The notes: generated from the sequence alone by a model not told the origin. A stretch of DNA of 46,400 bases from an uncultured Anaerolineaceae bacterium (GCA_964448245.1 CAYUWF010000002.1:1-46400), one strand, 5' to 3'. Counted from the stretch's first letter, positions 23,281 through 42,250 are shown. Program-made: numbers and translations.

Positions 23281-24588
23281 ATGGGCAACACTCCTGGCAA
23301 GAACTCGATCGGAGAGAAGTCCAACCCCTTCTTTCACCGCGGTCCAGTGCGCGACCCGGCGTACTTCTTCGGACGCAAAGAAGAGGTTCGCTATCTTTTC
23401 GACTTGCTACTGCGGGGACAGAGTGTGTCCGTTAGTGGGCCGCGCCGCTTTGGAAAAACGTCGTTACTCTTCAACGCTGCAGACCCAGGCATCATGCGCC
23501 AATATGGTCTTGATCCGCAACGGATACGCTGGGTGTACCTCGAAGGCGGGATGCTCGATGGATTAGACGAGGAATGGCTTTACGGCGCGATTGACCGTGG
23601 GTTAGGAAACGATGCAAACACGCTCCCCTATACGGGATTGTTGGAGCGGCTGCGGGGGCTCTCGGAACAGGGGCTCCGCCTGATCATTGCACTTGACGAA
23701 TTCGAACTGTTTGCGAGTAATCCACAGTTTCAGCCGAGCATGTTCAATCGCCTGCGTGGATTGGCAGGACAATTCGCGGTCAGTTTCGTGGTTGCTTCTA
23801 AAGAGCCACTCGCCAGACTCTCCTTTGCGCATCCAGAGACCCTCAGCTCCCCCTTCTTCAATATCTTTGCGCCAACTCCCCTTGGCCTCCTGCCGGAGCA
23901 GGAAGCCATAGAAATGCTCACTAGTTTATCCGCTCGCGGCGGACAAACTTTTAAACCGAGGACCAACCTATTCCTGCTCGATCTGGTAGGCCCCCATCCG
24001 TTCTTCCTGCAAGTAGCGGGCTACCGCGCTTTCGCGGCCCAGGATCGCGGGCTTCTGTCGTCCGATGCCTGCGCGGCTGTCCGGGAACAGGTAGGCAATG
24101 ATCTTGAAGGCCATCTCAATTACTATTGGTTTGGCATCTCATTGGCAGACCAATATGCCCTGGCATCTCTCCCCGTCATGGCCCTGGATAGCCGCTCATC
24201 GGCTTTCACCCGGCTGACGGAGGCTGGTTTGCTTCGCAAGAACGGCTATCTCGGTACGGTGCTCCGCGATTTCGTCTCGCGCCAGCGCATTGACGGGCTG
24301 CTCCAATGCGGGCGGTTTGTGATGGATGAAAGACGTAAGCTGGTAGCGGCAAATGGACAGTCAGTTCATCTTACCCCCACCGAATTTGAGGCCCTGCGTC
24401 TCTTGTTGCAGAATCCCGGCCAGCTTTTGACCCCGGAGGACATCGAGGCCGCCCTCTGGCCCGGCGAAATCGCGCCGGACCCTGAGCGCGCACGCGGCAT
24501 TGTGAAGAGGCTGCGTTCAGCCCTGGGACAGGCGGGAGAAGCGATTGTCACTGTGCGTGGGCAGGGATATGTCCTGAACCTCAAATAG
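23281..24588 (+). CDS. STAND/AAA ATPase fused to a C-terminal OmpR/PhoB-type winged-helix DNA-binding domain
   Basis: NPF..FFGR, GPRRFGKT, IIALDEFE, GPHPF; then HLTPTEFEALRLL...IEAALW...VKRLRSAL...IVTVRGQGY. Confidence 0.88.
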   Translation: MGNTPGKNSIGEKSNPFFHRGPVRDPAYFFGRKEEVRYLFDLLLRGQSVSVSGPRRFGKTSLLFNAADPGIMRQYGLDPQRIRWVYLEGGMLDGLDEEWLYGAIDRGLGNDANTLPYTGLLERLRGLSEQGLRLIIALDEFELFASNPQFQPSMFNRLRGLAGQFAVSFVVASKEPLARLSFAHPETLSSPFFNIFAPTPLGLLPEQEAIEMLTSLSARGGQTFKPRTNLFLLDLVGPHPFFLQVAGYRAFAAQDRGLLSSDACAAVREQVGNDLEGHLNYYWFGISLADQYALASLPVMALDSRSSAFTRLTEAGLLRKNGYLGTVLRDFVSRQRIDGLLQCGRFVMDERRKLVAANGQSVHLTPTEFEALRLLLQNPGQLLTPEDIEAALWPGEIAPDPERARGIVKRLRSALGQAGEAIVTVRGQGYVLNLK

Positions 24589-24735
24589 CGCCGGCATTCC
24601 ACCCAGGCCGTTTGTCTGTCTCCACGGACCCGATATTGCCCCGCAGTTGACCCGTAATTCCGCCCTATTTCCACCGGCTCTGTCCTTAGCTCCTGCCGGG
24701 ACCAGTCGTACCATGCAGGCAAGTCAATGCTGACA
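24589..24735 (+). promoter_or_regulatory. Phased 11-bp-repeat promoter, copy 1
   Basis: ATTGCCCCGCA/GTTGACCCGTA/ATTCCGCCCTA/TTTCCACCGGC/TCTGTCCTTAG (24635-24689); -10-like TACCAT at 24709. Confidence 0.75.
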
Positions 24736-24786
24736 TCGGGATCATGGCACTCCTGGAATAGCCGCATTCTAGGAAGGGAGAACCCC

Positions 24787-25371
24787 ATGGCTCAAGACAT
24801 TGGTCCGGCCTCTGCCTTGCCGACGGGTGTGTCGCCCTCTTTCGGCCCACCCGAGAAGCCGGAATCTCTGGAGGGCACCACACGCCTGGTCGAAGCGAAA
24901 CTCCGTCTGGAGAGTCGAGCGAATAGCGGTGCGTCGTGGTTCTACTGGATCGGCGGCCTCTCGATCCTGAACTCCATCATTGTTGTCGCTGGCGGGTCAT
25001 TCGCCTTCATCTTTGGGCTGGCTTTCACGCAAGTCATCGATACATTGGCATCCCTCATGGAGTCCGACTTAAGTATCAGCAGTCCCGGCATCATCACCTT
25101 CCTCGCCCTTGGAATGGACTTAGCCATAGCAGCCGCATGCGCCGGGGTCGGATATCTGGCGAGCAAGCGCAATCGGACGGTGTACATGCTTGGGATCGTC
25201 GTCTATGGCGTCGACGCCCTGATCTCCCTTGTCCTCCAGGACTGGCTAGGGGTTCTTTTCCACCTTTTCGTGTTGGCCGGTTTATGGAGAGGGATGAAGG
25301 CGATGAGAGCCCTGGCGACCATCGAATCAGGAGCCCTCCCCCTCGAAACCCTGCGAGTTGCGGCGCCTTAG
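24787..25371 (+). CDS. Multi-pass membrane protein, unknown function
   Basis: SGASWFYWIGGLSILNS followed by hydrophobic helices; GGGAG RBS. Confidence 0.8.
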   Translation: MAQDIGPASALPTGVSPSFGPPEKPESLEGTTRLVEAKLRLESRANSGASWFYWIGGLSILNSIIVVAGGSFAFIFGLAFTQVIDTLASLMESDLSISSPGIITFLALGMDLAIAAACAGVGYLASKRNRTVYMLGIVVYGVDALISLVLQDWLGVLFHLFVLAGLWRGMKAMRALATIESGALPLETLRVAAP

Positions 25372-25400
25372 GCTATCGCGACGATCAAGGAGACTATCCA

Positions 25401-26870
25401 GTGCTAAGCACAGAAGTTCTTGACGCAAGAATCCATCCCCGCTCCATCCGGACCAAGATCGTCTGCACCCTCGGCCCAGCCTCATCCGACGAGGCAACTT
25501 TGCGGGCCATGATCGAGGCCGGCATGACTACCGCGCGCATCAATCTGTCGCATGGGGAGCATGGTGACCACGCCAAGCAGATCACGCTCGTACGCCACCT
25601 TGCGCAAGAGATGGGCCGAGTGGTGCCCGTGATGATCGATCTTCAAGGTCCGAAGCTACGTATCGGCGTCATCGAGCATGAGCCGATCACGTTCGAAAAG
25701 GGACAAAGGATCACTTTTGTTCCGTCGACCAGTGGATCACGAGCAAATCAGATTCCCCTCCCCCACGCGCATTTGATTAACGGCGCAGCGATTGGCAACA
25801 CCGTATGGCTCGATGACGGTCTGCTGGAGCTGGTGGTCGTCGAGAAGGCACCTGGGGAGCTGCACTGTGAAGTGGTCGTTGGCGGCCAACTCTTCTCACA
25901 CAAGGGGATTAGCGTGCCGGGTGTCCGGAGCGATATGCCTGCCATTACGCCCAAAGATCGCAAGGACATCAAGTTTGCCGTTCAGCAGAAAGCCGACTTT
26001 ATCGCAATGTCTTTCGTCCAATCCTCGGCAAACATTGAGGAGCTGCGCGCGCTCATGGCCGCTCAGTCCGCCGCCATTCCGATTGTTGCCAAGATCGAGT
26101 CCCTGGAAGGCTTGGAAAACTTAGAGCAAATTGTGGAAGCCGCTGACGCTGTGATGGTGGCGCGCGGCGACCTCGGTGTGGAGGCCATCTTTGAGGAGGT
26201 GCCCGCGTACCAAATGCGCATCATCCGCGCCTGCAATAGGGCCGCCCGGCCCGTCATTACGGCGACTCAGATGCTTCACTCTATGATTCATTCTTCCCAT
26301 CCAACCCGAGCCGAAGCCAATGACGTTTTCACCTCGATCCATCAAGGATCGGATGCCGTGATGCTGTCCAGCGAGACAACCGTCGGCGATCATCCGGTTC
26401 GAGCCGTGGAGGTCATGAGCAAGATCGCCCGGATGGCCGAGCAGCACTTTCCGTACCGGACCTGGAACGTCGAACGCACAAACGGGGAGTCTCACTCCGT
26501 TACGGAAGGCATTGGGCAGGCAACCTGCACGATTGCGGCTTCGGTGCGCGCAAAAGCGATTATCACCAACACGATCTCAGGACGCACAACACGTGACGTG
26601 GCCAAGCACCGGCCCCAGTCGCTCATCATTAGCACGACTCCACGCGCGGAGACCCATCAGCAGATGGCATTGGTGTGGGGCGTGGAGTCGTTGCTGGTAC
26701 CTGAATTCTACGACACCGATTCGATGATTTCGGGAGTAAAGCACGCGGCGATCGCAGCTGGCCTTATCCGCCAGGACGACACCGTAGTCATCACCGCCGG
26801 AGTGCCCGTCGGCACGGTTGGGCAGACCAATCTGCTTCAGGTACATACGATGAGGCAAGCGGATCTATGA
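25401..26870 (+). CDS. pyk: Pyruvate kinase
   Basis: RTKIVCTLGPAS, DLQGPKLRIG, IVAKIES, VMVARGDLGVE, ITATQML; GTG start after AAGGAG (ORF-track start 24936 is overextended). Confidence 0.95.
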   Translation: MLSTEVLDARIHPRSIRTKIVCTLGPASSDEATLRAMIEAGMTTARINLSHGEHGDHAKQITLVRHLAQEMGRVVPVMIDLQGPKLRIGVIEHEPITFEKGQRITFVPSTSGSRANQIPLPHAHLINGAAIGNTVWLDDGLLELVVVEKAPGELHCEVVVGGQLFSHKGISVPGVRSDMPAITPKDRKDIKFAVQQKADFIAMSFVQSSANIEELRALMAAQSAAIPIVAKIESLEGLENLEQIVEAADAVMVARGDLGVEAIFEEVPAYQMRIIRACNRAARPVITATQMLHSMIHSSHPTRAEANDVFTSIHQGSDAVMLSSETTVGDHPVRAVEVMSKIARMAEQHFPYRTWNVERTNGESHSVTEGIGQATCTIAASVRAKAIITNTISGRTTRDVAKHRPQSLIISTTPRAETHQQMALVWGVESLLVPEFYDTDSMISGVKHAAIAAGLIRQDDTVVITAGVPVGTVGQTNLLQVHTMRQADL

Positions 26871-27021: not shown

Positions 27022-27038
27022 GGCGCAGAGGGCAGTCG

Positions 27039-29070: not shown

Positions 29071-29354
29071 GAAAGCTGGGACAGTTGCGCAAGTGAAAAC
29101 GACCCGCACCAGCCTCCTCGCAATCTCCAGCCCTCTCATTGCCATAGTTGGATGCGTCACTGTTGGTGCGGAATTGGTTGAGACCAGCTCCCTAATCGTA
29201 GCCTTACGTGACTCCAAGCCTTCACTGACTAACACGGGGAACGACCTCTAATGCTTGTTTTGGTGACAAAAGGCAAACACGTCAATGACGAAGAGTGTTC
29301 AAGGGGAGCCGTCTTCGGAACCGGCAAATGGGTCGTCTCCCGCTGTCGGCACAC

Positions 29355-29377
29355 GCCCGCAACGCAAACCGTTAGGC
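29355..29377 (+). mobile_element. attC 3' remnant
   Basis: GCAACGCAAACC GTTAGGC 23 nt before the next ATG; no convincing 5' half. Confidence 0.45.
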
Positions 29378-29400
29378 GGCCACGAATAGGGGAGGGGTCA

Positions 29401-30201
29401 ATGCGCCTGCTTCTTTCGCTCTCTGCAAGCTCGGCTTTGCTCTTTGCCTGCTCACTACCCAGTTCTGTTACTGGCTCAGGCCGGGCCCGCCCAACCCCTC
29501 ATTGGGTCGACATGCTCTGTTCCTCGGATATCCCGGCTGCGGAGGAGGCGTACAACAGAGCCTGGGACTCATTCGATAGAGGAGACTTGGACCAGGCAGA
29601 ACAGCTCTACGGGAAGGCCATCGAACTGGACCCCGGCTTCTGCGACGCGATGGACAATTTAGGACTCCTACTCCGACAAGAAGGCCGCCTCGATGAAGCG
29701 ATATCATGGTACAAGGCGTCACTCGAAGTCTTACCTTCGAACGCTACGGCCCTCCAGAATCTGGCGGGCGCCTACCAGGTCCGTGGAGACACGCAGAATG
29801 CGATCAATTCATTCGAGGCTTTGATCGAACTTGACCCACAAAATCCAGAGGGCTATTACGGGCTCGGCAACCTTTACTCGCACCTCGGCCGCGCACCCGA
29901 CTCCGTGCCCTATCTTGAGACAGCCCTTCAGCTCTACGATAACCCCGGCTCGCCCCGCGCTCTCGACGCGCACTACCTGCTTGGGCTTGCACTCTACACC
30001 ACCGAAGACTGTCTCAACGCTGTCCCGCACCTCGAGGCTGGTTATGACCACTTCGAGGAAGATCCCGATGTCAATTATGCGTTGGGATACTGCTACCTCA
30101 CACCAGAGTTCAATGACACCGAGAGCGCGCGTGTCTTTCTCAAGAAAGCGGAGAGTCTGGGTGTTGACATTCCATCCGAACTCGAAGAGTTCGTGCGGTA
30201 A
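29401..30201 (+). CDS. TPR-repeat lipoprotein
   Basis: GGAGG RBS, lipobox LLFAC, about five TPRs (KAIELDP, AMDNLG, GYYGLG). Confidence 0.85.
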   Translation: MRLLLSLSASSALLFACSLPSSVTGSGRARPTPHWVDMLCSSDIPAAEEAYNRAWDSFDRGDLDQAEQLYGKAIELDPGFCDAMDNLGLLLRQEGRLDEAISWYKASLEVLPSNATALQNLAGAYQVRGDTQNAINSFEALIELDPQNPEGYYGLGNLYSHLGRAPDSVPYLETALQLYDNPGSPRALDAHYLLGLALYTTEDCLNAVPHLEAGYDHFEEDPDVNYALGYCYLTPEFNDTESARVFLKKAESLGVDIPSELEEFVR

Positions 30202-30305: not shown

Positions 30306-30377
30306 TGAGAGTCCGGAGCCCCTTCGCCAGTGGTGCCGGCGAACAAATCCCTGAAACGGACTCGGGTGGCTTTCAAC

Positions 30378-30565
30378 CTGCGTGGGCGGGAAACATCCCG
30401 TACCTAAAACGGGACCCTCACTCCACACAGGCCGCTCGTCAGTCTGCACCTGACCCGCTATTGCCCCGGAATCTCCCCCTAATTCCACCTCCTCTGTCCT
30501 TAGCGCCTGCTGGGATCAGTCGTAGCATGCGAGCAAGTCAATGCTGACGACGGCATCTTTGGTCT
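30378..30565 (+). promoter_or_regulatory. Regulator-tail remnant plus 11-bp-repeat promoter, copy 2 (one unit shorter)
   Basis: ATTGCCCCGGA/ATCTCCCCCTA/ATTCCACCTCC/TCTGTCCTTAG (30460-30503); TAGCAT at 30523; aligns to 24553-24735. Confidence 0.75.
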
Positions 30566-30640
30566 AAGTGCCCGTTTCCGTTGACTGAATGTCTCAGGTA
30601 GGCGCCCGGCGCGAGATAGCGCCGGAAAGGAGGAACCATC

Positions 30641-31888
30641 ATGCGCACGCGAACGGGACTGACGATCGCCACTCTGCTTACCCTGGCAGCCAACCTCGGG
30701 GCCTGTGGAACGATCAAGGCGGCGATTTTCCCACCCACGGAAACACCCACACCGACCCCCACACCGACACCGAGACCCACAGCAACGGTCACCCCCACAC
30801 CCACGCCGACCCCCCTGCCTGATATCTCGCGTGTCCTGCTGAAGCTGGATGATCTGCCGAGCAACTTCATCGAGGCGCCTCCCAGCCAGGTGGCAATGAT
30901 GACGCTGGGGATGGAAGGATTCGGCTTCTCAGAATCCGTTGCCGCCGTGTTCACCGACCTGGAGAGTGGCGAGACAGTATCTGTAATCACCGGGCTGCTG
31001 CTGGACGATAGGGCGGCGAGTCAATTTCAGGATTTCCTGGGCTTGCCGGATCTTGTGTTGATCGGCGTTCTGTCCGCCATGGGCACCAATCCGGTGGTCC
31101 GGCCAGGACAACTACCGGGCGTGGATACCCTGGGAGATCAGGCCAGCGCGGTGACCGGGACCGTGGACGTTCAGGGAGCACCCGTGCAGGTTGACAGTGT
31201 GCTCGCAAAGCGAGGCGCGGTTGGGATGTGGGTCTTCAGCCTGGTTCCCGATGGGATCGGTACGACTCCGCCGATTATTGACCTGGCGAAACTCGTAGAT
31301 GGGCGGATCATCACGTTGATGGGATCACCTCCTGGAATTCGTACGGGGGAAGGGCCGGAGCTCGAAATGCCCGCGATCTCCGGTCTCAGTGCTTGGGTGC
31401 ACGACGCCGACTCGGGAGGCTATGAATACTTCTACGCCACCGCGGAGGATACTTACGAAGACGTTAGGGATTGCGTTCGGGATGAGATGCTGAACAACGG
31501 GCTGGACCTGCAAGGGGTGCAAGCCACCATCTCGACCCAGGGTCATGGCTGGGAGACCCTGTTCACCTTCTTCATGGCTGATCTTCATCCGGGAGCATCT
31601 ACAGAGTGGGTGGTCGAGATCCAAAACTCTCTCGGGTTGCTGATGCTTAACGATGCTTCCGAACTCGACGCCGGTGGTCTCGCGCCGCCTCCCACTTTGC
31701 AATCCGTTTCAACATTTAGCGAGTCCGGCTACGATCTGAAGGTCATCGATCTGAACATCCCGACCCTTTACCCGAGTGCCGTCGCCGCCGCGGAAGGCCT
31801 GCAGCCATGGTTCACGGAGCTCAGGCTGAGCGTTCGCGCGGAGACGCCTAGCGGGGCTGCCTGTGATGAGTTCAAGCCCGCGGGCTAG
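30641..31888 (+). CDS. Two-domain lipoprotein with Pro/Thr linker
   Basis: AAGGAGG RBS, lipobox LGAC, PTPT repeats; last about 187 aa shared with 43001-44068. Confidence 0.85.
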   Translation: MRTRTGLTIATLLTLAANLGACGTIKAAIFPPTETPTPTPTPTPRPTATVTPTPTPTPLPDISRVLLKLDDLPSNFIEAPPSQVAMMTLGMEGFGFSESVAAVFTDLESGETVSVITGLLLDDRAASQFQDFLGLPDLVLIGVLSAMGTNPVVRPGQLPGVDTLGDQASAVTGTVDVQGAPVQVDSVLAKRGAVGMWVFSLVPDGIGTTPPIIDLAKLVDGRIITLMGSPPGIRTGEGPELEMPAISGLSAWVHDADSGGYEYFYATAEDTYEDVRDCVRDEMLNNGLDLQGVQATISTQGHGWETLFTFFMADLHPGASTEWVVEIQNSLGLLMLNDASELDAGGLAPPPTLQSVSTFSESGYDLKVIDLNIPTLYPSAVAAAEGLQPWFTELRLSVRAETPSGAACDEFKPAG

Positions 31889-31903
31889 CCTCGCTTACCA
31901 CGC

Positions 31904-32000
31904 GCCTAGCAACTCGCTGGAACCGACCCGGCCAGCCGGGTGTCGAGTTGGGCGCGATACTAGGCTTGGGGCCGGGCGGTTCCGCTCGAGGCCGTTAGGA
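31904..32000 (+). mobile_element. attC site
   Basis: GCCTAGC AACTCGCTGGAACCGACCCGGCC...GGCCGGGCGGTTCCGCTCGAGGCC GTTAGGA. Confidence 0.85.
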
Positions 32001-32009
32001 GGCATCTCG

Positions 32010-32403: not shown

Positions 32404-32523
32404 ATGACTAGCGGGACATGGATCTTCAGCCTGTATCCGAGCGGGATGGGTCCGACTACAACAATGATTGACCTGGCGGAACTCGTAGATGTGCGGATCA
32501 TCGAGTTGAGAGGTGAGAATTGA
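32404..32523 (+). pseudogene. Fragment paralogous to 31223-31324 of the lipoprotein gene
   Basis: GTWIFSLYPSGMGPTTTMIDLAELVDVRIIELRGEN* versus GMWVFSLVPDGIGTTPPIIDLAKLVDGRIITLMG. Confidence 0.75.
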
Positions 32524-32545
32524 TGCTCTCGATGGGAGACGGTCT

Positions 32546-34699
32546 GTGACCCCACCCTCCATTGTGCAGTCCATCCTAACCGATCCCGCTGACGCGCTGA
32601 TCACGCTGCATCGCCTCGCCGACATGGGGAAACAGGATGCCGATGTTGCCGCCCTACAGGAGTCATTGCCGGGGATGCTTGAGATTGCGGGGGAAAACCT
32701 TCTGGCGCGGCTTGCGGAGGCGTACCATCTGATCAGTCGCGGCCAGTCGGATCAGGAATTACTGCTGGTTGGGCTGCGCAAGCTCAGAGCCGGGCTCAGC
32801 GATCCGGGAGCGCAAGCTCTTCACCATGCAAACGAAGCGGCAAGGCTCTACAGCCTATGTGAGCAAGCTATTGAAGCTGAGACGATTGCCGCCATAACGG
32901 ATTTGCTTCCCGCCCTGCAGTCAGTCCGGTCAGAGGACAAGTCATTCGAACTGGCCGATCTGGCTGACACGCTGCATGAACTGATCCCGGCTGCGAAATC
33001 CCTCTTCGCCTATGAGCGGGTGGACTCTACACAAGACCGGTTGGCTTATCTTGCCGCAACCATCGAGCATTTGCACGAAGTCGATCGGAAGGCGCGTGTG
33101 TTGGGCGCGACAGACAGTCCCATTGTCCAGCGAATCGTTGACAGATGGTTGGCGATTGCGACCAGTAGGCTAGGCGATCTCAAGACACGGGCGCAAATCA
33201 CCTGCCAGCTCGTGACCCACCGCACGTGGCAAAGCGACTCGATCACGTTGGCTCTGCGTCTTCACAACCAAGGACATGGCACCGCCCTGAACCTGCGGGT
33301 GAGCCTTTCTGAAGATCCGGGATATTCGCTGCTGGACGGGGTTGTCATCGTGGACCGGCTTGTGGCGGGCGACGAGATACAGGTTGAACTGCGCCTCCGG
33401 CCCCGCCAGGAACCGGGGGGGACGCACTTCCGGGCACGCTTTATCGTCCTGTACGATGATCTGCGCGGGTCAAACCAGGTCGAGCACTACGCAGACTTGG
33501 TTCACCTTGTTGCTCCGGAAGGCGCGTTCCAGTTCATCCCGAATCCATACGTCATCGGCACGCCGCTCAAGATGGGATCGCCGCTCTTTTTCGGACGTGA
33601 AGATGTGTTTTCCTTCATCCAGGAAAACTTTGCTGCCGCGCATCACAACAATCTCGTGCTGATCGGCCAGCGCCGCACCGGCAAGTCATCGTTGCTCAAA
33701 CAGCTTCCGTTACGCCTGGGTGAGGGCTATGTCCCGGTCTACCTTGACGGGCAGAGCATCGCCCTCGACCCTGGCTTGCCGGCCTTCTTCTTGAATCTCG
33801 CCATGGAGATCAGTTACGCGCTGGAAGATCGTGGGGTGTCTTTCGAAGCCCCCAGTCTGAGCGACTTCGCCGAGCGGCCCGCCTATCACTTTGAGCGAAG
33901 CTTTCTTCGCCGGGTGCGGAAAGCCATCGGCGACCGACATCTGACGCTGCTCTTGGATGAATTCGAGGAGCTGGGATCCGCCGTGCGACGCGGCACCTTG
34001 GATGACTCGGTCTTCGGCTTCCTGCGCCATCTAATCCAGCACGGTGAGGGGATTAGCATGATTTTTTGTGGCACGCACCGACTGGAAGAGCTGCCGACCG
34101 ACTACTGGAGCGTTCTGCTTAACGTAAGTCTTTACAGACATATCGGGTTCCTGACCTACCCGGAGGCGGTCGGCCTGATCCAGGATCCGGTTGCCCCCTT
34201 TGGCTTGCGCTACGATGACCTGGCGTTAGATAAGATCTGGCACGTCACCTCAGGCCACCCGTACTTCTTGCAGCTGCTCTGCCACAGTCTCGTCAATCAC
34301 CACAATCGCTCACAGCGCAGCTACGTGACCGTAGCCGACGTCAACGCGGCTCTGGACGAAATCATGGCTACCGGGGAAGCACACTTCGCCCACCTGTGGA
34401 CCGAATCCACCAGCGAAGAGCGTCTGATCCTGACGGCGCTCAGCCGGATGATGACGCTCACCGGGCGGGTCACGCCGGCGCAGGTAAGCGACTATCTCGC
34501 CGAGCGAGGCATCGCCCTGGACCGTCAGACAATCGGTAACACGCTTCACCGCCTGACCCTGCGCGATATTCTTGCAGCCAAGGCGGGCAGCGGTGGGATC
34601 GAGTTCGATGGCTCCTACCGCTGGCAGCTGGGCCTGCTGGGCCTGTGGGTAGAAAAGTACAAGTCGCTGGGTCGCCTGCGTGAGGAAACCCGTCCATGA
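32546..34699 (+). CDS. STAND/AAA ATPase with helical and Ig/CARDB-like N-terminal domains
   Basis: LHNQGHGTALNLRV, NPYVIG..FFGRE, GQRRTGKS, LLLDEFE, SGHPYFLQ; start uncertain, may be 5'-truncated. Confidence 0.85.
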   Translation: MTPPSIVQSILTDPADALITLHRLADMGKQDADVAALQESLPGMLEIAGENLLARLAEAYHLISRGQSDQELLLVGLRKLRAGLSDPGAQALHHANEAARLYSLCEQAIEAETIAAITDLLPALQSVRSEDKSFELADLADTLHELIPAAKSLFAYERVDSTQDRLAYLAATIEHLHEVDRKARVLGATDSPIVQRIVDRWLAIATSRLGDLKTRAQITCQLVTHRTWQSDSITLALRLHNQGHGTALNLRVSLSEDPGYSLLDGVVIVDRLVAGDEIQVELRLRPRQEPGGTHFRARFIVLYDDLRGSNQVEHYADLVHLVAPEGAFQFIPNPYVIGTPLKMGSPLFFGREDVFSFIQENFAAAHHNNLVLIGQRRTGKSSLLKQLPLRLGEGYVPVYLDGQSIALDPGLPAFFLNLAMEISYALEDRGVSFEAPSLSDFAERPAYHFERSFLRRVRKAIGDRHLTLLLDEFEELGSAVRRGTLDDSVFGFLRHLIQHGEGISMIFCGTHRLEELPTDYWSVLLNVSLYRHIGFLTYPEAVGLIQDPVAPFGLRYDDLALDKIWHVTSGHPYFLQLLCHSLVNHHNRSQRSYVTVADVNAALDEIMATGEAHFAHLWTESTSEERLILTALSRMMTLTGRVTPAQVSDYLAERGIALDRQTIGNTLHRLTLRDILAAKAGSGGIEFDGSYRWQLGLLGLWVEKYKSLGRLREETRP

Positions 34700-35730
34700 G
34701 CAATCCTCATAGCCGCCGCGCCTCGATGGACGATTCCAGGATGTTCTTTGGGCGGGATCAGGAACTCAACGAGATCGCTGCCTTTCTCCGTGGCGACCAG
34801 TCGGTTTCGCTTGTTGGGCCGCGCAAGATCGGCAAGTCAAGCCTGTTGCTCCATCTGATGCGCCCTGAAATCGGCGGTGCGCTGGGGATAGGTGCCGAAA
34901 ACCTGCTGGTCTATCTCGACGGTGAGGCGTTCAGCACGGCGCGGCATGACCGAATCTTCTCGCACTTCTGCACAGAGATGACCGCGGCTCTCAATGCACG
35001 CGGCGCAGACCCGGAACCCGCCCTGGCAGCCGCAATCGCCAACCCAACTCGCATCAACTTTGAGGGCGCGGTGCGGCGACTCAACCAGCATGGCGTGAGG
35101 GTGGTTTTGATCCTGGATCAGTTTGAGGGGCTGAGCGTCAATCCACATCTGGATTTGAAGTTCTTCAACGGGCTGCGCTCGGCGGCAGGACGTTACCAGC
35201 TTGTCTTCCTGACCGCATCCGCCCGCCCCCTCATCGAGCTGACTCACTCCAATCGCCCGATGGAGATTCTCTCCAGTCCGTTTTTCAACATCTTTGCGCC
35301 ATCGTGTGTCGGGCTGCTGAAAGAAGAGGAATCCCGTGGCCTGATTCGTACGCGATTGCAGGCAGTCGACATGCCCGTGACACCCGCCCTTGAAGACTTC
35401 GTCTATGATCTGGTTGGCGGCCATCCACTGGGCCTGCAGGCCGCCTGCCTCCATGCGCAGGAAGGTCCCCATGATTTCGCCGAGATCGAGCGCCGGACGC
35501 TACAAGAACTGCAACTGCATTTCGACGTCTGCTGGCACGACCTCGACGCTGTTGAGCAAAATAGCCTGTTCCATCTCTCCGATGCAGTTCTGAGGGAGTC
35601 AGGCGATGCCACTGTCCGCGTCGCGCTGCGCGATCTGGTGCAGAAATGCCTGCTTGTACGCGGCCAGGGGTTGTATCGGTACCCATCGAGGGCGTGGGCA
35701 GAATTTATAGCGGCGCAGGCAGCAGGATGA
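34696..35730 (+). CDS. STAND/AAA ATPase, paralog of 23281 lacking the winged helix
   Basis: FFGR, GPRKIGKS, LILDQFE, LSSPFFNIFAP (identical in 23281), GGHP; ATGA overlap with the upstream gene. Confidence 0.85.
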   Translation: MSNPHSRRASMDDSRMFFGRDQELNEIAAFLRGDQSVSLVGPRKIGKSSLLLHLMRPEIGGALGIGAENLLVYLDGEAFSTARHDRIFSHFCTEMTAALNARGADPEPALAAAIANPTRINFEGAVRRLNQHGVRVVLILDQFEGLSVNPHLDLKFFNGLRSAAGRYQLVFLTASARPLIELTHSNRPMEILSSPFFNIFAPSCVGLLKEEESRGLIRTRLQAVDMPVTPALEDFVYDLVGGHPLGLQAACLHAQEGPHDFAEIERRTLQELQLHFDVCWHDLDAVEQNSLFHLSDAVLRESGDATVRVALRDLVQKCLLVRGQGLYRYPSRAWAEFIAAQAAG

Positions 35731-35991: not shown

Positions 35992-38073
35992 GTGAACGAC
36001 TGTCTTTTTGTTTTCCTTGTTGTTACGTTAGGGTTCGGTGGGTTGTTTGGGTTCGTGTATCTCATCGCGCGGAGCAATGAAGCCCAAGCGCGAACTGGGG
36101 AACCTTCTTGGTTAATCCGAGTGACCGGCATTGTTGTTTTCGGAGCACTGGCAGTCAGCGGCCTGAGTGACATCGAGCCTATGTTTCTCATGTTTCTTGT
36201 GCTGGGGTTGTTGGTCCTAGCTTGGTTTGTGGTGCGCACCCGCAAAGCATGGTCGCTGGACAAACATGACCGCGAAGCGGCCGCGCCAATGGTCCTCAAC
36301 GACGACGCGCTTCCGGGGCCGCCTTATCCCTCCTTGATGCAGACCCTCCTTTCCAAAGCCCTACCTCAATGGCGGGGCCAACCCCAAAAAGGCGGATCAA
36401 TGGAACACAAGTCAGAACAAGGCATTACGAACTGGCAGTGGGTAGGAAAGCCGGAACGAATAGGGATTGCGCTCGTGACCCTTTTCACAGGTGTATTGTG
36501 TTGGGGAGCGCCCACCCCGTCGCCGGTTGCCACGTTGCCGGCCAACCCCAATACGTTTCGGATTGTCGCCGAGAGCGAGGTCCAATCGCTGCAAGACGCC
36601 GGCATTCTGGACGATTTCACCCAAGAGACGGGCATCAAGCTAGAGATCGCCTATTGGGGGCCAGTTGACATCAGGAACGCCGTCAGCAGCCTCAGTGAGG
36701 ATAACCCCAAGACGGTCGATGCCTATTGGCCTGGCAGCTCTCTTTGGCTTCCCGGCTCCTCCGGTGTTGAGCCAGTATCGGTCATGAAAACCTACGTGGT
36801 TCTCGCCGTCGATCCGGAGTCCGCCAGGGAGCTTGGGTGGGACACACACAAAGGTATTACCGCGGCTGACCTGGTCGACGGTGTTCGGTCTGGCAAGATC
36901 AATCTCGCCATGACTTCAGCCTCCCAGAGCACTCCCGGCGCGACCTTCTACCTGGCGATGTATACTGCCCTCACCGACAAACGCGTCCTTACCTCCGAAG
37001 ACCTGGAGGATCCGCAGGTGTTCGACGACCTCAAAGCCATGCTGGCAGGCGTTGAGCGCTCCGCCGGCAGCCTTGACCATCTCAAGCAGGTCTTCGTGGA
37101 CGACAAAGTGTCCGGGGCGAACCGCTTCAACGCCATTGTGATCTACGAGAGCCTCGCCATCGAGATGAATAGGGAGCTTGTCGCCCAGGGTCGGCCGCCC
37201 ATGACCATCTTCTATGTGACGGGCGCGACGGCCGTCGCCGACGTTCCCATTCGCTTTGTAGACAACGGGGATGACAGCCGCCGAGAACAGTACGACCAGC
37301 TCGTTGGCTTTCTCACCAGGCCGGATATCCAGCAGAAGATTCAGGCGCTTGGCTGGCGCACCAACCCCATTGGAATGGTCCTTGAGAACGCCGATCTCTC
37401 TGAGTTCAATCCCGACTGGGGAATCAATACCACCACCGAGTTTCGGGAAATGGTCTTCCCCAAGCCATTCGTGGCTCTCGCCGCGCTCAACCAGTATCAG
37501 AGCCTCTTCCGCAAGCCCAGCTTTACCGTGTACTGCCTTGACTACTCCGCCAGTATGGAAAGCAATGGCGGCCGGGAGCAGATGATTGATGCGATGGATC
37601 TACTGCTCGATCAGGAGCGCGCCTCGGAGGTGTTGCTGCAAGCTACGCCACAGGATGTGACTGTGGTCTATGGCTTTTCGGACATGACAGTACAAATTGG
37701 TAACGCGCTCGAAGGCAACGATCCAGGAGCGCTCAAAGCACTTTCGACTCTGATTACGACTAGGGGCACCGGTAGCGGCACGGCCTTGTTCGATTGCGTC
37801 AAAGCCGCCCTGGCCTACATCGCCGACCGCGACAATCCCAAATACGGCTACTCCGTCATCGCCATGACCGACGGTCAGTCCAATACAGGAGCGACAGCCA
37901 CTGATTTTGAGAACTACTACAGGGGTCAGAACCTCAACATCCCTGTCTACGGTATCGCTTTTGGCTCGGCTGACGTTTCTCAGATGAGTGTGTTCGTCAA
38001 CACGGGCGGGGCCGTTTACGACGGTCGTCTGGATGTGGCGGCCGCCTTCCGCCAGGCGAAGGGCAACAACTGA
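35992..38073 (+). CDS. Substrate-binding domain plus vWA domain protein
   Basis: SBP region (DAYWPGSSLW, AMTSASQSTPG, IYES) and MIDAS DYSAS...TALFD...MTDG; true start may be ATG 36400. Confidence 0.85.
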   Translation: MNDCLFVFLVVTLGFGGLFGFVYLIARSNEAQARTGEPSWLIRVTGIVVFGALAVSGLSDIEPMFLMFLVLGLLVLAWFVVRTRKAWSLDKHDREAAAPMVLNDDALPGPPYPSLMQTLLSKALPQWRGQPQKGGSMEHKSEQGITNWQWVGKPERIGIALVTLFTGVLCWGAPTPSPVATLPANPNTFRIVAESEVQSLQDAGILDDFTQETGIKLEIAYWGPVDIRNAVSSLSEDNPKTVDAYWPGSSLWLPGSSGVEPVSVMKTYVVLAVDPESARELGWDTHKGITAADLVDGVRSGKINLAMTSASQSTPGATFYLAMYTALTDKRVLTSEDLEDPQVFDDLKAMLAGVERSAGSLDHLKQVFVDDKVSGANRFNAIVIYESLAIEMNRELVAQGRPPMTIFYVTGATAVADVPIRFVDNGDDSRREQYDQLVGFLTRPDIQQKIQALGWRTNPIGMVLENADLSEFNPDWGINTTTEFREMVFPKPFVALAALNQYQSLFRKPSFTVYCLDYSASMESNGGREQMIDAMDLLLDQERASEVLLQATPQDVTVVYGFSDMTVQIGNALEGNDPGALKALSTLITTRGTGSGTALFDCVKAALAYIADRDNPKYGYSVIAMTDGQSNTGATATDFENYYRGQNLNIPVYGIAFGSADVSQMSVFVNTGGAVYDGRLDVAAAFRQAKGNN

Positions 38074-38086
38074 AGGTATCGTCACG

Positions 38087-38758
38087 ATGCGAGACGAGAG
38101 TCGGCGCCTCACGAGAAAGGAAGCTGTTGCCCTTGGAATAGGCATTGTCGTGGTGATCATCGTTGCTCTCATCACCACGCGCACTCGCCCGCTTCTATTT
38201 CCTGTTAGCTTCCTCCTGAGCCTTACGCTCGGCGCCATGGCCGCCTATGGGGCTCTCAAGCTTCTGGATCCCCGGACCCCGACGGACTTGCTTGAACACG
38301 AGATGAGCGCCAAGTTCCGCTTGATGCTCGAGCAGCTTCAGGAGATTGCCTCCAGAACCGAGCAGGCGAGCCGCAACGGCCGTCTCAACGCGGAGACATC
38401 CGGCCGCCTGGCAGGCATCGCTTCCTGTATGGGCATGATCGCGCGGCGTTATCAGGAGCGATCGCGTGACTTCGCAGGGGCCTCCTCGGCGCTCCTAATT
38501 TTCCAGGAATTCGACAGGGTTCTGGCCCACTATCTCAGGATCAAATCGGGCGAGCAGTTTCTGGATCAGGATACGAAACGGACGGAAATCGCCCAGACGG
38601 AAACCCGGATACTCCCGATTGTCGAAACTGCGCTGGAAACCTTGGGCAGGCAGCTCGACTCCGGCCAGGTCGTCGACAAGAAGATATCCGAAGGCACCCT
38701 GGAAAGTATGTTGCAATCGCTCAACCTGATTGAGTCCTTGAAAGATCACATAGGGTAG
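38087..38758 (+). CDS. XpaC-like (5-bromo-4-chloroindolyl phosphate hydrolysis family) membrane protein
   Basis: Two TM helices plus a helical domain; position in a telA operon. Assignment is mostly contextual. Confidence 0.55.
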   Translation: MRDESRRLTRKEAVALGIGIVVVIIVALITTRTRPLLFPVSFLLSLTLGAMAAYGALKLLDPRTPTDLLEHEMSAKFRLMLEQLQEIASRTEQASRNGRLNAETSGRLAGIASCMGMIARRYQERSRDFAGASSALLIFQEFDRVLAHYLRIKSGEQFLDQDTKRTEIAQTETRILPIVETALETLGRQLDSGQVVDKKISEGTLESMLQSLNLIESLKDHIG

Positions 38759-38783
38759 CCACCGCAGACCGAGGAGATTGGCC

Positions 38784-39917
38784 ATGACGGGTAGAAGGAA
38801 TGTCATTACCGGGATCGTGCTGCTGGCTGTGGTTGCCGCCGCGGTCAGACTGCTCATACCACCGCCGCCTCCCACCCCCACGCCGACTCCCGCCCCCACG
38901 CCGACTCCCGCCCCCACGCCCACGCCGACTTCTACTTCCTATACCGAATTGAATGTCTTCGGTGGGTATCGCTTCTTCGAAGATGAAGAAATCATGGCGA
39001 TCTTGCATGACAGGTATGCGATTGATGTAGTCGGTGAGTTCCGCAAGGGCACATTTGACATGTCCACCGACTACGTAGACGAGGATTGCATCTTTCCGGG
39101 CAGCAAGACCGGAATCGACAATTTTGAAGCCGAGCACCCCGACGTGATCCGGCGATCGGAGGCGGTCTTTCAAGCTCCCATTACCGTCTATACCTGGAAG
39201 GAGTTCCTGCCCTCACTGGAACAGGCCGACCTTGTTTTCACTAGGGATGGCGTCTATTTCCTGCGTATGAAGCCTCTGATCGACGCCATGCACGAAGACA
39301 AGCAGTGGCTTGACCTGGGAGTTGATATTCCGGGATACGTGAACGTGGAATCGACCGATCCGCTCGAGAGTTCAAGCGGAATGATCTGGCTGGCGCTCAT
39401 GGCAAGCTATCTGGTGCCAGGCAACGAGACGGGTGGCAGGGTGGTGACATTGGATGATCTCATTGACAATGACATCCTACCGGTGTTGCGCAAGTATTGG
39501 GAGAACCAGGGTAACCAAACCATCACCACCGGGAAACTGTTCCCCAGATTCATCACGACGGGCGCAGGGATGCCGATGATTGTTGCTTATGAAAACAGCT
39601 TTATTGGCTGGTACGAAGCGTTACCTGACGACCAGAAACCACAGGCAGATCGAATCGTGGGTATTTACCCTCAAGTGACGATCAGTACCGAACACAGTCT
39701 GGCCTCTCTCACTCCCGCCTGCGACCAACTTCTCGAAATGTTCATGACCGACGCCGAGATTCAGCGACTGGCTTGGAACAACTATGGGATGCGCAACATC
39801 GCCGGGGGTATCGGCGCCCGCCCGGGTAGCGCTAGCTGGATCGCCGTAACCGTCCCCTATGTCCCGGAGCCAAAGACAGATGTGACCGACGCCCTCGAGG
39901 CGGAATTGAGCCGGTAG
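38784..39917 (+). CDS. Membrane-anchored extracellular solute-binding protein
   Basis: GAGGAG RBS, TM, Pro/Thr linker (18-bp tandem repeats), STDPLESSSG, PMIVAYEN. Confidence 0.75.
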   Translation: MTGRRNVITGIVLLAVVAAAVRLLIPPPPPTPTPTPAPTPTPAPTPTPTSTSYTELNVFGGYRFFEDEEIMAILHDRYAIDVVGEFRKGTFDMSTDYVDEDCIFPGSKTGIDNFEAEHPDVIRRSEAVFQAPITVYTWKEFLPSLEQADLVFTRDGVYFLRMKPLIDAMHEDKQWLDLGVDIPGYVNVESTDPLESSSGMIWLALMASYLVPGNETGGRVVTLDDLIDNDILPVLRKYWENQGNQTITTGKLFPRFITTGAGMPMIVAYENSFIGWYEALPDDQKPQADRIVGIYPQVTISTEHSLASLTPACDQLLEMFMTDAEIQRLAWNNYGMRNIAGGIGARPGSASWIAVTVPYVPEPKTDVTDALEAELSR

Positions 39918-39954
39918 CTCAGTCCCTTTCAGCTTCCAATAGAAAGGCAAACCC

Positions 39955-41142
39955 ATGGCTGACGCAATGGTAGATCCCAAAGAGGCGAACAGCATTGTCA
40001 CGATGCAGCAATACTCCAAGGAGATCAAGAGGTCGCCTGCTCTCCCGCCATTGTCGGATAAGGACATGGCCCGCGCCCGGGAGCTGTCCAGAGCCCTGAT
40101 CCGTACGGAAGACCAGTTGGACGACATCGTCCTCTTTGGCAGCGACGCCCACAACGCCGTAGCGCAAATCACGAGAGACATGCTACGCGGAGTCCGGGTC
40201 AATGCCATGGACGATGTGATCCACATATCGGATCACGCTCTGGTTCAGATCAACGCGCTCGACCTGGGAGAGCTCACCCCCGCGGCCCGTCGCTACCTTC
40301 TCGTTCTCCGGGAATCCACCGCGGCCATCAGGCATCGGATCGAAAAGTTCTTCAGGGGTTACGAGCTGGTCAATTCTCGGTTGGAATCCCTGGTTGCAGA
40401 AATCCTTGGCAAGGAGACGGAGTCAACCAAGCGCTACTATGCAGATGTTGAGCTCGAAAAGGGGACCTTCGATGTCATGCTCGACGCACGCATCAAGCTG
40501 GCAGCCATCCGGCTCTTTCTGAATGGCGACTATGGTTACGTGGAATGGGATCGCCGCCAGAAGCTGGTGGCGGAGGAACAGGCCGCGGCCGGGCGCGAGA
40601 CTCGTTCGGTGGACTTCGTGATTGTGGCGGCGGCTGAGCGTTACGCGAAGTACATTGAGCGCCTGGAGATGAAAGGCGCCTCGCTTTCGCAGGCGATTCT
40701 CTCGGCCTACCAGACAGGCGTCACCATCCGCTTGATGCGCGAGAATGAGAACATCATTCGCCAGAAGCTGGTCGAAGTTCGCACCGAGCTCGTCCCGCAA
40801 TGGCGTACGCTCATCGCCATCGCCTACAGCGCCTATCAACAACGGGGCATTGCTGCCTTCGTGGGCCGAGTCCGGGACGCTGAAAGTGAATTGCGTAAGA
40901 AGGTTGGTGAGCAACTGGAAATGGCAACCAACGGCGTGGCCGATATGGTCACCCAGCAAACCTTCGAACCCGAGGCCATGGTCTACTACCACGATAAGCT
41001 GGTAAAGTCGCTCGAAACGCTGAAGAGCGCTTCGATTGAGGCCAGGAAGATCCGCAGCGCCGCCGAGGCATTTACCGAAGAGTACATTGCGAAACTGGGA
41101 GAAGCCGTCGTTGCGACTTCTCTACGCGCTCAGCAAGACTAG
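39955..41142 (+). CDS. TelA/KlaA toxic anion resistance family protein
   Basis: IVLFGSDA, all-helical body, IRLMRENENII...LVPQWRTLI motif. Confidence 0.75.
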   Translation: MADAMVDPKEANSIVTMQQYSKEIKRSPALPPLSDKDMARARELSRALIRTEDQLDDIVLFGSDAHNAVAQITRDMLRGVRVNAMDDVIHISDHALVQINALDLGELTPAARRYLLVLRESTAAIRHRIEKFFRGYELVNSRLESLVAEILGKETESTKRYYADVELEKGTFDVMLDARIKLAAIRLFLNGDYGYVEWDRRQKLVAEEQAAAGRETRSVDFVIVAAAERYAKYIERLEMKGASLSQAILSAYQTGVTIRLMRENENIIRQKLVEVRTELVPQWRTLIAIAYSAYQQRGIAAFVGRVRDAESELRKKVGEQLEMATNGVADMVTQQTFEPEAMVYYHDKLVKSLETLKSASIEARKIRSAAEAFTEEYIAKLGEAVVATSLRAQQD

Positions 41143-41157
41143 CTCGGTGGTCCAGAA

Positions 41158-41821
41158 GTGACTGCGCTGCAATTGAAAAGGAGCATTGGTAGAGTGGCCT
41201 CCAGATGGCGGGGATCCTCTCCAGCAGACATGGCATCGTTGAGCTGTGGGACGGACCTCGCAGGAGCCTACCACAACCGCGGGTTAGCCTATCTCAGCAA
41301 GGGTGACTACGACCGCGCAATCGCCGACCTCGACAAGGCCATTCAACTCGGCCCAGGCGGCGCAGATGCCTACAACAACCGCGGATGTGCCCGCGGCAAC
41401 AAGCGCGACTACGACCTGGCCATCGCCGACTTCGACAAAGCCATCCAACTCAAGCCGGATCTCGCACGAGCCTACTTCAACCGCGGATATACCAACGGCT
41501 TGAAGGTAGACCACGACCTAGCCATCGCCGACTTCGACAATGCCATCCAACTCAAGCCAGATTGCGCAGAAGCCTACAAGAAACCGCGGAACTGCCTTCC
41601 ACAGCAAGGGCGACCACGATCGGGCCATCGCGGACTTCGACATCGCCATCCCGCTCAAGCCAGACGAGGCAGTGGTCTACTTCAACCGCGGGCTGGCACT
41701 TGCCATGAAGCGAGATAAAGATAATGCCATTGCCGATTTCAAAAAGGCTTTGGCATTGAGCAGTGACTCAAATCTGCGGCAGGCCGCGGAGAAGGGCTTG
41801 CGCGAGTGGGCGCCGGGGTGA
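41158..41821 (+). pseudogene. TPR protein with a one-base frameshift
   Basis: 102-bp repeats AYxNRG...AIADFDKAIQLKPD; an extra base in TACAAGAAACCGC near 41580 splits it into two ORFs. Confidence 0.8.
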
Positions 41822-42005
41822 TCAAGGCGGCCGGTGTAGGCCCGAGACTAGTCAGCGCTGCGTGGCGCGCCTCCGCGAAGCCGCCTGCCTTGGAACAGAA
41901 GACGGCGGCGATCGGCAAGCATATGCCGTGGGAGGGCCTTGCTGCCGTCCTTTGGGGCAGCGGTGACTGTCGGGATGCGGGGATTCGAAGCTGAGGCTGA
42001 GCGGA

Positions 42006-42088
42006 AAGAGGCTGCCCACAGCGCTGGATCAGGGGGAATACGTGATTGCCAACGTGCGCCGCAGGGACATATCCTGAACCTCAAATAG
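42006..42088 (+). pseudogene. 3' remnant of a paralog of the winged-helix regulator
   Basis: KRLPTALDQGEYVIANVR/QGHILNLK* versus KRLRSALGQAGEAIVTVRGQGYVLNLK*. Confidence 0.8.
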
Positions 42089-42250
42089 CGCTCGCATTCC
42101 ACAAAGGCTCTTGTCTGCCTGCACTGACCCGATATTGCCCCACAATCTCCCCTCAATTCCGCCGTAATTCCACCGGCCCTGTTCTTAACGCCGGCTGGGA
42201 TCAGCCGTACCATGCAATCAAGTCAATGCCCACGACGGCATCGTTGGTCT
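42089..42250 (+). promoter_or_regulatory. 11-bp-repeat promoter, copy 3
   Basis: ATTGCCCCACA/ATCTCCCCTCA/ATTCCGCCGTA/ATTCCACCGGC/CCTGTTCTTAA (42134-42188); TACCAT at 42208. Confidence 0.75.

Follow-up and report, generated by a model that had tools for sequence, protein, structure and literature searches.

The window studied here is the first 46.4 kb (46,400 nucleotides) of contig C2 (CAYUWF010000002.1) in an assembly of an uncultured Anaerolineaceae bacterium (GCA_964448245.1; 2.43 Mb, 198 contigs, 90% complete). It contains a regulator gene and three copies of a predicted operator-promoter, here called P1, P2 and P3. We think it probable that the regulator and its predicted operator-promoters, which are arrays of 11-bp units, form a gene switch common to a whole protein family, and that in this genome one regulator serves all three promoters. 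The regulator would then be one of a large group of Chloroflexota one-component transcription factors, a family so far uncharacterised, in which an nSTAND2 NTPase is combined with an OmpR/PhoB-type winged helix. That the array together with its -10 hexamer is the operator of this family is indicated by the repeats, their register, their specificity for the family and synteny; binding is predicted.

The promoters lie in a block of about 190-240 bp that occurs three times, always on the plus strand (24505-24743, 30374/30379-30566 and 42006-42251). With blastn, copy 1 aligns with copy 3 over 239 nt at 78% identity (24505-24743 against 42006-42242, E 1e-47) and with copy 2 at 75% (24554-24743 against 30379-30557, E 1e-28). 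The triplication reported in a preliminary description of this DNA is thus borne out, and it is confined to this place: no fourth copy is found in the assembly, and copy 1 used as a DNA query gives no match in 40 related genomes. The same description placed the last codons of the regulator gene in every copy. Copy 1 indeed starts within the 3' end of the intact gene, and copy 3 carries the last ~27 codons in decayed form (42006-42088), with the TAG stop kept and 76% identity to copy 1. The corresponding remnant in copy 2 is close to background: its identity with the other copies is 57-59%, against a baseline of 45-52% in unrelated flanks. When the block is matched against itself a lag of 11 dominates (22/33 positions, against 12-16 at other lags), and in a common register the tandem units, also described earlier, read nCCCnnAATnn, head-to-tail.

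Downstream of its array each copy has a -10-like hexamer, TACCAT or TAGCAT, and the string CAAGTCAATGC, which begins 11 nt downstream of the first -10 base; both had been noticed before and are present in all three. The first unit lies at -81, -70 and -81 relative to the -10 in copies 1, 2 and 3, and copy 2 therefore has exactly one unit fewer with the register kept, as had been proposed. From -49 to +22 the alignment of the three copies is ungapped, so any fixed distance between a unit and the -10 is common to all of them. The earlier statement that the -10 follows 30 nt after the start of the last unit stands as far as this shared fixed distance is concerned, but which unit was counted as the last could not be reproduced. 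In each copy a ribosome-binding site and an open reading frame (ORF) are found 45-110 nt downstream of the predicted start. By hydropathy, the three genes that follow are, as claimed, different envelope genes, with about four transmembrane (TM) segments, a lipoprotein-type signal and a single TM anchor, respectively.

Table 1. Features of the window, with positions counted from its first nucleotide; promoter elements and transcription starts are predictions.
Feature	Position	Strand	Description
Low-GC island around the whole unit	22100-46400		runs to ~48 kb of C2; ~59% GC against 67.1% for the genome
Regulator gene, 435 aa	23281-24588	+	nSTAND2 P-loop NTPase N-terminal, OmpR/PhoB-type winged helix C-terminal (residues ~340-435)
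Promoter copy 1 (P1)	24506-24743	+	joined to intact regulator 3' end; matrix score 25.2; profile R1 E 1.9e-5
P1 spacer and leader	24589-24627	+	spacer after regulator stop; conserved early leader up to 24743
P1 units	24628, 24639, 24650, 24661	+	strong; degenerate unit at 24672; proximal TCCTTAGCTCC at 24683 (~-38)
P1 core	24686-24714	+	-35-like TTAGCT 24686-24691, 17 nt, -10 TACCAT 24709-24714; predicted start ~24721
Output gene 1, 194 aa	24787-25371	+	~4 TM segments (hydropathy), no Pfam family; start codon preceded by GGAAGGGAG
TPR lipoprotein-like gene	29251-30201	+	directly upstream of P2; Pfam TPR families, hydropathy
Regulator-end remnant, copy 2	30331-30412	+	near background identity (see text)
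Promoter copy 2 (P2)	30379-30566	+	matrix score 28.4; profile R1 E 1.3e-6
P2 units	30453, 30464, 30475	+	strong; degenerate unit at 30486; proximal TCCTTAGCGCC at 30497
P2 core	30500-30528	+	-35-like TTAGCG 30500-30505, 17 nt, -10 TAGCAT 30523-30528; predicted start ~30535
Output gene 2, 415 aa	30641-31888	+	lipoprotein, signal ending in Cys, Pro/Thr linker (hydropathy)
STAND gene, 728 aa	32513-34699	+	nSTAND1/AAA_22 (Pfam); Walker A GQRRTGKS
STAND gene, 344 aa	34696-35730	+	nSTAND2 without winged helix; Walker A GPRKIGKS; 30% identity to regulator NTPase part
TM + solute-binding-like + vWA protein	35992-38073	+	Pfam
Small TM/coiled-coil ORF	inside 37988-38758	+	
Pro/Thr-linker lipoprotein	38778-39917	+	
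TelA-family protein	39955-41142	+	Pfam
TPR gene	41158-41822	+	directly upstream of P3; reading frame shifts at ~41590
Promoter copy 3 (P3)	42006-42251	+	matrix score 33.2; profile R1 E 1.8e-6
P3 units	42127, 42138, 42149, 42160	+	strong; degenerate unit at 42171; proximal TTCTTAACGCC at 42182
P3 core	42185-42213	+	-35-like TTAACG 42185-42190, 17 nt, -10 TACCAT 42208-42213; predicted start ~42220
Output gene 3, 195 aa	42266-42853	+	one N-terminal TM anchor (hydropathy)
Gene after output gene 3	43001-44068		TM + bPH_3 + C-terminal domain common with output gene 2

With an alignment of 37 regulator homologues we retrieved 45 loci from species genomes and 79 from metagenomes (numbered with an L below). 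Tandem 11-bp units of the same kind stand directly after the stop codon of the orthologous regulators, often overlapping it, and are followed by a TAnnnT hexamer and then by a gene. Such an array is present on the regulator's strand in 24 of the 33 genome loci that include the stop codon and downstream DNA; 19 of them have a matrix score above 18, and five are two-unit arrays of the CAATCGACCCG type, in register.

The weight matrix behind these scores was built from 15 orthologous loci of other genomes, with no window sequence in the training. Over 4.85 M positions of the assembly, the three window copies come top (from 25.2 to 33.2), while no other site scores above 20.1 and the 99.9999th percentile is 20.5. 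A profile, R1, was made from 16 promoters of 14 loci, again from other genomes only. In the window it matches the three copies and nothing else (next best E 1.4), and at E<=1 the same is true for the whole assembly. The next-best matrix site, C48:31 (20.1), was dropped, as it has no R1 match at this threshold. Among the 79 metagenome loci, which were unused in training, R1 gives 30 matches at E<=0.01 in 28 loci, and 22 of these begin between about -15 and +120 nt from the end of the regulator match on the same strand. The remaining eight are found further downstream (two in L105), upstream (L096, L121, L123) or upstream on the opposite strand (L107-L109). In three other genomes, where 150 first-look candidates were scored per genome, R1 finds one site each, beside the regulator. 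The scan for co-occurrence with the regulator family that had been suggested earlier thus turns out positive: models trained outside the window find exactly the three copies, and the array recurs at the stops of orthologues. Altogether arrays accompany the regulator family in more than 40 loci, and by the matrix and R1 models there are none elsewhere in the source assembly.

Several loci have more than one array. Four stand in tandem in L032/G044, each followed by a gene for a secreted protein or a lipoprotein; there are two in L105, two in L096 and one extra in L121. The extra array of L096 is located 348 nt upstream of the regulator, those of L121 and L123 about 6 kb upstream. The first genes after the arrays vary from locus to locus and mostly encode secreted or membrane proteins, which supports the earlier proposal that the regulator drives differing outputs; its oligomerisation and its role as an activator are still inferred. 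In L107, L108 and L109 the R1 matches (E 2.8e-4) lie ~130-210 nt upstream of the regulator start on the minus strand, which suggests a divergent target promoter in this lineage. No array is found upstream of the window regulator at R1 E<=10, and autoregulation through this operator is therefore not indicated in the window.

When the promoters of all lineages are anchored at the -10, they fall into one 11-nt register, and near -38 they share a conserved proximal unit, YCCTT. In 25 of 29 arrays the TAnnnT hexamer occupies phase 4 of this register, with the four exceptions at phases 3, 3, 5 and 6, and 16 of the 20 clusters made at 70% identity are wholly in phase 4. The distance from the last unit (>3 bits) to the hexamer downstream is mostly 26, 37, 48 or 59 nt, that is 4+11k; in five rows where this distance was negative a later in-phase match had been taken as the last unit. 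As the distances are quantised in this way, insertions and deletions have come as whole units, like the one in window copy 2. In five loci (L022, L023, L024, L026 and L028) one to three palindromic inserts resembling miniature inverted-repeat transposable elements (MITEs) part the regulator stop from the array by 150-250 nt. The register between array and -10 is intact despite such inserts in these loci, which are related ones from Anaerolineales.

Between the window copies, identity is 78-86% from -49 to -13, 80-86% from -10 to +22 and 70-74% in the spacer that follows the stop codon. Compared with the other copies, copy 2 has 81-86% identity in its promoter core but only 57-59% in the adjoining remnant, which shows a predicted promoter maintained while its neighbouring remnant decayed. 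Better conservation of the repeats than of neutral flanking sequence, as would be expected, is thus seen for copy 2; copies 1 and 3 are too alike along their whole length for such a difference to appear.

These comparisons bear on the view that only copy 1 or copy 2 works, the others being neutral leftovers of segmental duplication, so that there is no regulon of three promoters. The useless regulator remnants carried in the copies are what it would predict, copies 1 and 3 resemble each other no better in the promoter than in the remnant, and there are other duplications in the island (a 97-nt repeat at 31223 and 32413, a common C-terminal domain at 31320 and 43500). However, all three copies keep in-register units, the proximal unit, the 17-nt spacer, the TAnnnT hexamer and a ribosome-binding site with its ORF; the loss in copy 2 is exactly 11 nt, beside a remnant at background level; all three beat every other site of the genome in models trained elsewhere; and loci with several arrays recur in relatives. 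We therefore regard decayed relics as a very improbable account of two of the copies.

Even less credence can be given to a reading in which the blocks serve mainly as recombination sites, as sites of another OmpR-family protein or as a structured RNA leader. The gene sets on either side of the blocks do differ in content, the first 22 nucleotides of the predicted transcript are conserved to the same degree as the promoter, and the genome encodes many other Trans_reg_C proteins. Against this, there is no recombinase among the window genes scanned with Pfam, a scan that covered part of the ORFs, and the arrays track one regulator family in over 40 loci and are absent from the rest of the source assembly. 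The RNA element was dropped, since Rfam gives 0 matches at E<=1 over 22000-46400 and the three leaders fold with z-scores of -0.55 to -1.42 against shuffles, with no common structure.

In Pfam the protein itself matches nSTAND2 (PF20702) with 36.0 bits (cut-off 24) and Trans_reg_C (PF00486) with 58.6 bits (cut-off 26.2), the latter with residues 359-432 covering profile positions 1-77 of 77. Walker A (GPRRFGKT) and Walker B (LDEFE) motifs are present in the translation, and G58, K59, T60, D139 and E140 are invariant across the 37 homologues. In the AlphaFold2 model (pLDDT 93.7) the winged helix has strands at 340-362, helices at 366-377, 385-392 and 401-421 and strands at 422-432, with pLDDT >90, and so shows the N-terminal beta sheet, the three helices and the C-terminal beta-hairpin wing of its fold. 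Foldseek finds this domain similar to the effector domain of PhoB in complex with pho box DNA (1gxp_A, TMt 0.86, rmsd 2.4), and the NTPase part similar to ORC/Cdc6, archaeal ATPase_2 and plant NLR NB-ARC folds. When a profile of the 37 homologues is searched against the Protein Data Bank (PDB), 50 sequences match, all through the winged-helix region (positions ~317-424). They are response regulators and other transcriptional regulators, such as CarR (5.7e-12), PcoR, RegX3 and PhoB, and only OmpR-family DNA-binding domains are matched by sequence in this search.

Other domains known from related regulators were looked for as well. Pfam finds no repeat-type sensor arm (TPR, WD40 or LRR) after the NTPase, and the model shows no extra domain. 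There is no Pfam match to a receiver domain (Response_reg), the N-terminal 330 residues being the P-loop NTPase, and none to BTAD at E<=0.01; with its winged helix at the C-terminus the protein does not have the SARP layout. Nor is the C-terminus a LuxR-type or GerE helix-turn-helix, as Pfam gives Trans_reg_C there.

The regulator family is large: of 8000 candidates scored, 630 are homologues at E<=1e-10. Both PF20702 and PF00486 are present in nearly all of the homologues listed, and the few that have an organism name are from Chloroflexota or Anaerolineae. Close to the source organism the distribution is patchy. A full-length orthologue is absent from four genomes of the same genus and 20 others of the same family: in the four only the winged helix is matched, in other proteins, and among the 20, three encode a STAND relative with similarity to the NTPase part alone, without winged helix, the rest being winged-helix-only or weak. 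The best orthologue among the 40 relatives (54% identity) comes from another family of the same order. Some variants of ~530 aa (P0031, P0038, P0040, P0044 and others) have an extra XRE-type helix-turn-helix, N-terminal according to their source names. In a distant clade (L043, L046, L052, L055; 34-37% identity) a second nSTAND2 gene starts at most ~100 nt after the regulator stop and there is no array; the arrangement resembles the two-gene nSTAND2 layout that has been published, the winged helix being on the first gene.

Differences in the recognition helix between regulator clades track variants of the unit: ARG-VKK goes with ...ATCG ACCC G..., and LKS-IKG and VRA-IKS go with ...ATTT CCCC T.... 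This pairing fits direct readout of the unit by the helix, but shared ancestry or GC content would explain it too.

From these observations a mechanism can be proposed. The operator would be a head-to-tail array of three to six 11-bp units (nCCCnnAATnn), ending in the proximal YCCTT unit at about -38 and held in a fixed helical register with the TAnnnT -10. The NTPase modules would multimerise in an NTP-dependent manner and so position one winged helix on each unit, along one face of the DNA, and the bound winged helices would recruit RNA polymerase to promoters whose -35 and -10 are poor. P1 would drive the 4-TM protein, P3 the TM-anchored protein, and P2 the lipoprotein and, probably, the syntenic operon of nSTAND1/nSTAND2, vWA and TelA genes. 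The multimer mechanism is most likely, by analogy with the action of OmpR/PhoB and SARP winged helices. Binding, activation, the stoichiometry of the multimer, transcription starts, operon extents and the evolutionary order are all inferred.

The same operator could also be used by a regulator that represses, or has a dual role, with the bound protein occluding RNA polymerase until a signal arrives. OmpR-family proteins can repress. In all the aligned promoters the proximal unit extends over the -35 region, with units reaching -38 and the spacer, and many orthologous promoters have a good extended -10 (of the TGnTATGAT or TATGCT type) and might work without an activator. In the window, by contrast, the -35 and -10 hexamers of P1-P3 (Table 1) are poor. 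Further, the array reaches 50-60 nt upstream of the -35, which is unneeded for occlusion, and the strict 11-bp phasing with the -10 across 26-59 nt is what face-of-helix contact with the polymerase predicts. On balance we find repression or a dual role unlikely.

A number of points weigh against a family-wide activator switch. Nine of the 33 genome loci have no array, mostly in the clade of 34-37% identity in which a second nSTAND2 gene directly follows, and a few R1 matches precede the regulator or are on the opposite strand (L096, L107-L109, L121, L123). Orthologous promoters share ancestry, so that the phase counts are non-independent draws, and L033, L037 and L039 were counted with their second-ranked hexamer, likewise at phase 4. 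Copies 1 and 3 are about equally alike in the remnant (76%) and in the promoter (78-80%), and the constraint argument is therefore that of copy 2 alone. The -10, -35 and start positions of P1-P3 were assigned by consensus alone, and a simple sigma-70 scan misses all three promoters (2 sites found against 6.3 expected in shuffles); a miss is expected for an activator-dependent promoter, yet it is no positive evidence and we treat it as uninformative. The regulator also has no sensor domain that would point to its activating signal. Finally, the hairpin repeats that follow output genes 2 and 3 (see below) may end transcription early and limit the reach of P2.

Among known systems several come close. 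MalT and GutR are one-component STAND activators, in which nucleotide-driven multimerisation is coupled to the binding of repeated boxes upstream of their targets. Their helix-turn-helix domains are LuxR-type or of another kind and their sensor arms are large, whereas the regulator has an OmpR-type winged helix and no sensor arm. Both are cited as non-immune STANDs in the available part of a recent preprint (bioRxiv 10.64898/2026.01.04.697583). The AfsR/SARP-type STAND activators of Streptomyces (SARP-NOD-TPR, or SARP-LAL such as PimR) are also similar, as they join an OmpR-type winged helix to a STAND NTPase. In the available text of PMC10936776, AfsR is described as a SARP-NOD-TPR activator with two 11-bp repeats that overlap the -35, and OmpR/PhoB and SARP domains in general as binding 11-bp direct repeats in this position. 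The likeness thus extends to an 11-bp direct-repeat operator over the -35 of a promoter with weak hexamers, where AfsR activates by contact with RNA polymerase according to the same text. Unlike these proteins, the regulator has its winged helix at the C-terminus and not at the N-terminus, and lacks the BTA domain and the TPR sensor. Its NTPase is nSTAND2 and not of the NB-ARC/AP-ATPase type, its arrays have three to six units against two, and it belongs to the phylum Chloroflexota.

With the PhoB/OmpR response regulators there is agreement in the DNA-binding domain, by sequence and fold, and in direct repeats of 11 bp that replace a good -35 (the pho box). In contrast to them, the regulator has an NTPase in place of a receiver domain and partner kinase, its arrays are longer, and its unit is another one (CCC...AAT). 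Archaeal Orc1/Cdc6 and ATPase_2 (PF01637) proteins give the best whole-chain folds (2v1u_A, 2qby_A, 2qen, 2fna_A) and also have an NTPase followed by a winged helix that binds DNA repeats. However, the TM-scores on the query are 0.31-0.48 at 14-18% identity, the winged helix is of another type, and these proteins act in replication.

The nSTAND2 family was defined in a mobile two-gene 'counter-invader' conflict operon, for which toroidal hetero-multimers were predicted (Kaur et al. 2021, eLife, PMC8195603). In the available text of that paper the effector fusions of nSTAND2 are GT4 and HEPN, and of two adjacent genes one has eroded NTP motifs and is fused to the effector. The NTPase of the regulator is of the same family, PF20702, the P2 unit has an adjacent STAND pair, and distant relatives of the regulator are followed by a second nSTAND2. 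The window differs from the operon as described there in that a 4-TM gene follows the regulator, the STAND pair (32513-35730) keeps both Walker A motifs, and neither GT4 nor HEPN is found by Pfam. A DNA-binding fusion, an operator or a promoter is not mentioned in the available text, although the supplementary architecture tables may list such a fusion. A literature search gave no account of the regulator family as a regulator, nor of its operator. In its predicted way of working the regulator is like AfsR/SARP, PhoB and MalT/GutR, yet it is a member of none of these groups.

The three promoters lead into rather different gene sets. Residues 61-228 of output gene 2 are 56% identical to the lipoprotein that follows the regulator promoter in the closest relative, L080. 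Its C-terminal domain recurs in the gene at 43001-44068 (31320-31619 against 43500-43799, 82% over 300 nt). For output genes 1 and 3 no homologue was found among the first genes after arrays elsewhere, nor in the fetched loci. The TPR gene upstream of P3 contains four 102-bp tandem repeats (41275-41691), and its change of frame reflects either a frameshift or a misassembly within them.

Behind P2, the two STAND genes overlap, and their orthologues follow the regulator promoter in relatives; in tblastn against L019, L021-28, L045, L084, L086-88 and L121 they show 51-59% and 48-57% identity, respectively. In L080/L081, whose regulator is 63% identical, the order is regulator, promoter, a lipoprotein like output gene 2 and a homologue of 32513-34699. 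In L088/L087 the regulator promoter is followed by homologues of the genes at 32513, 34696, 35992, 37988-38758 (L088 only) and 38778 and of TelA, in the order of the window. A TM-GAF-nSTAND1 protein of ~1300 aa is the first target in L021-L028, and its C-terminal 55% corresponds to 32513-34699. The window gene is without the ~580-aa TM-GAF N-terminal part of its orthologues, and a 97-nt piece of the lipoprotein gene (31223-31319) is repeated at 32413-32509, just before it, with 79% identity.

As P2 is syntenic with the relatives' promoter in L080, L088 and L121, and its operon with theirs, copy 2 takes the ancestral promoter position. The decayed copies 2 and 3 are each preceded by a TPR gene, and in L121 a TPR gene precedes the regulator, with the extra array further upstream. 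The triplication most likely came about by duplication of modules of regulator, promoter and possibly cargo, followed by loss of two regulator copies of which the last codons were left; the TPR link in this reconstruction comes from one relative, L121. Remnants beside TPR genes fit such whole-module duplication and loss at least as well as a self-moving promoter. The portable promoter in a cassette array, put forward in the preliminary description, is thus supported only in part: P2 is ancestral by synteny, and duplication of whole modules does at least equally well. In the ORF-poor region upstream of the regulator (22.0-23.3 kb) no TPR or regulator remnants were found; a dispersed repeat is there instead.

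This repeat is GC-rich and up to ~130 nt long. It occurs at 22581-22710, in the ORF-poor gap, and at 31922-32003 and 42899-42944, directly after the stops of output genes 2 and 3. It is also found three to four times each on C82, C50, C27 and C1 (72-93% identity). Folding of the copy at 31915-32010 is far more stable than that of shuffled sequences (z -4.8), and the repeat may be a terminator or an element like a MITE or a repetitive extragenic palindromic (REP) sequence. Since the copy at 31922-32003 falls there, the ORF 31863-32366 is doubtful.

The whole unit lies in an island of low GC. The 20-kb windows that start at 20, 25 and 30 kb of C2 have the three lowest GC values of 98 (0.590-0.602; mean 0.668, sd 0.018). 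Even so, a pyruvate kinase gene lies in the island right behind output gene 1 (25386-26870), and no other was found in the assembly. Two adjacent tRNA-Ala genes with GGC and CGC anticodons, 84% identical, are present on the minus strand at 18494-18644, about 3.5 kb before the GC drop.

The nSTAND1/nSTAND2 partner-type proteins of relatives carry TM and GAF sensor parts. It is possible, if doubtful, that the winged-helix nSTAND2 protein is a DNA-binding output arm that co-assembles with the nSTAND1/nSTAND2 proteins that its ancestral target operon encodes. These partners would detect signals from the envelope or from invaders, and the regulator would respond by switching on envelope, vWA and TelA genes in a positive feedback loop; the compact operator-promoter on the regulator's stop codon would have been duplicated repeatedly to add secreted or membrane outputs. 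If true, this would be an NLR-like switch with a promoter as its effector.

STAND/NLR-type NTPases have mostly been studied as immune sensors that end in cell death. To our knowledge few STAND transcription factors are known (MalT, GutR, AfsR/SARP-LAL), and we know of almost no characterised transcription factors or promoters in Chloroflexota. Here sequence evidence alone defines a family of nSTAND2-winged-helix proteins, its likely operator, the promoter architecture and a local regulon. The three natural promoter variants, with three or four strong units, make a testable system for how nucleotide-driven multimers may read one site per helical turn. The window further illustrates how a regulon may grow by copying a compact operator-promoter. 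A family that has so far been filed under 'conflict systems' is now linked to the predicted transcriptional control of envelope, vWA and TelA genes.

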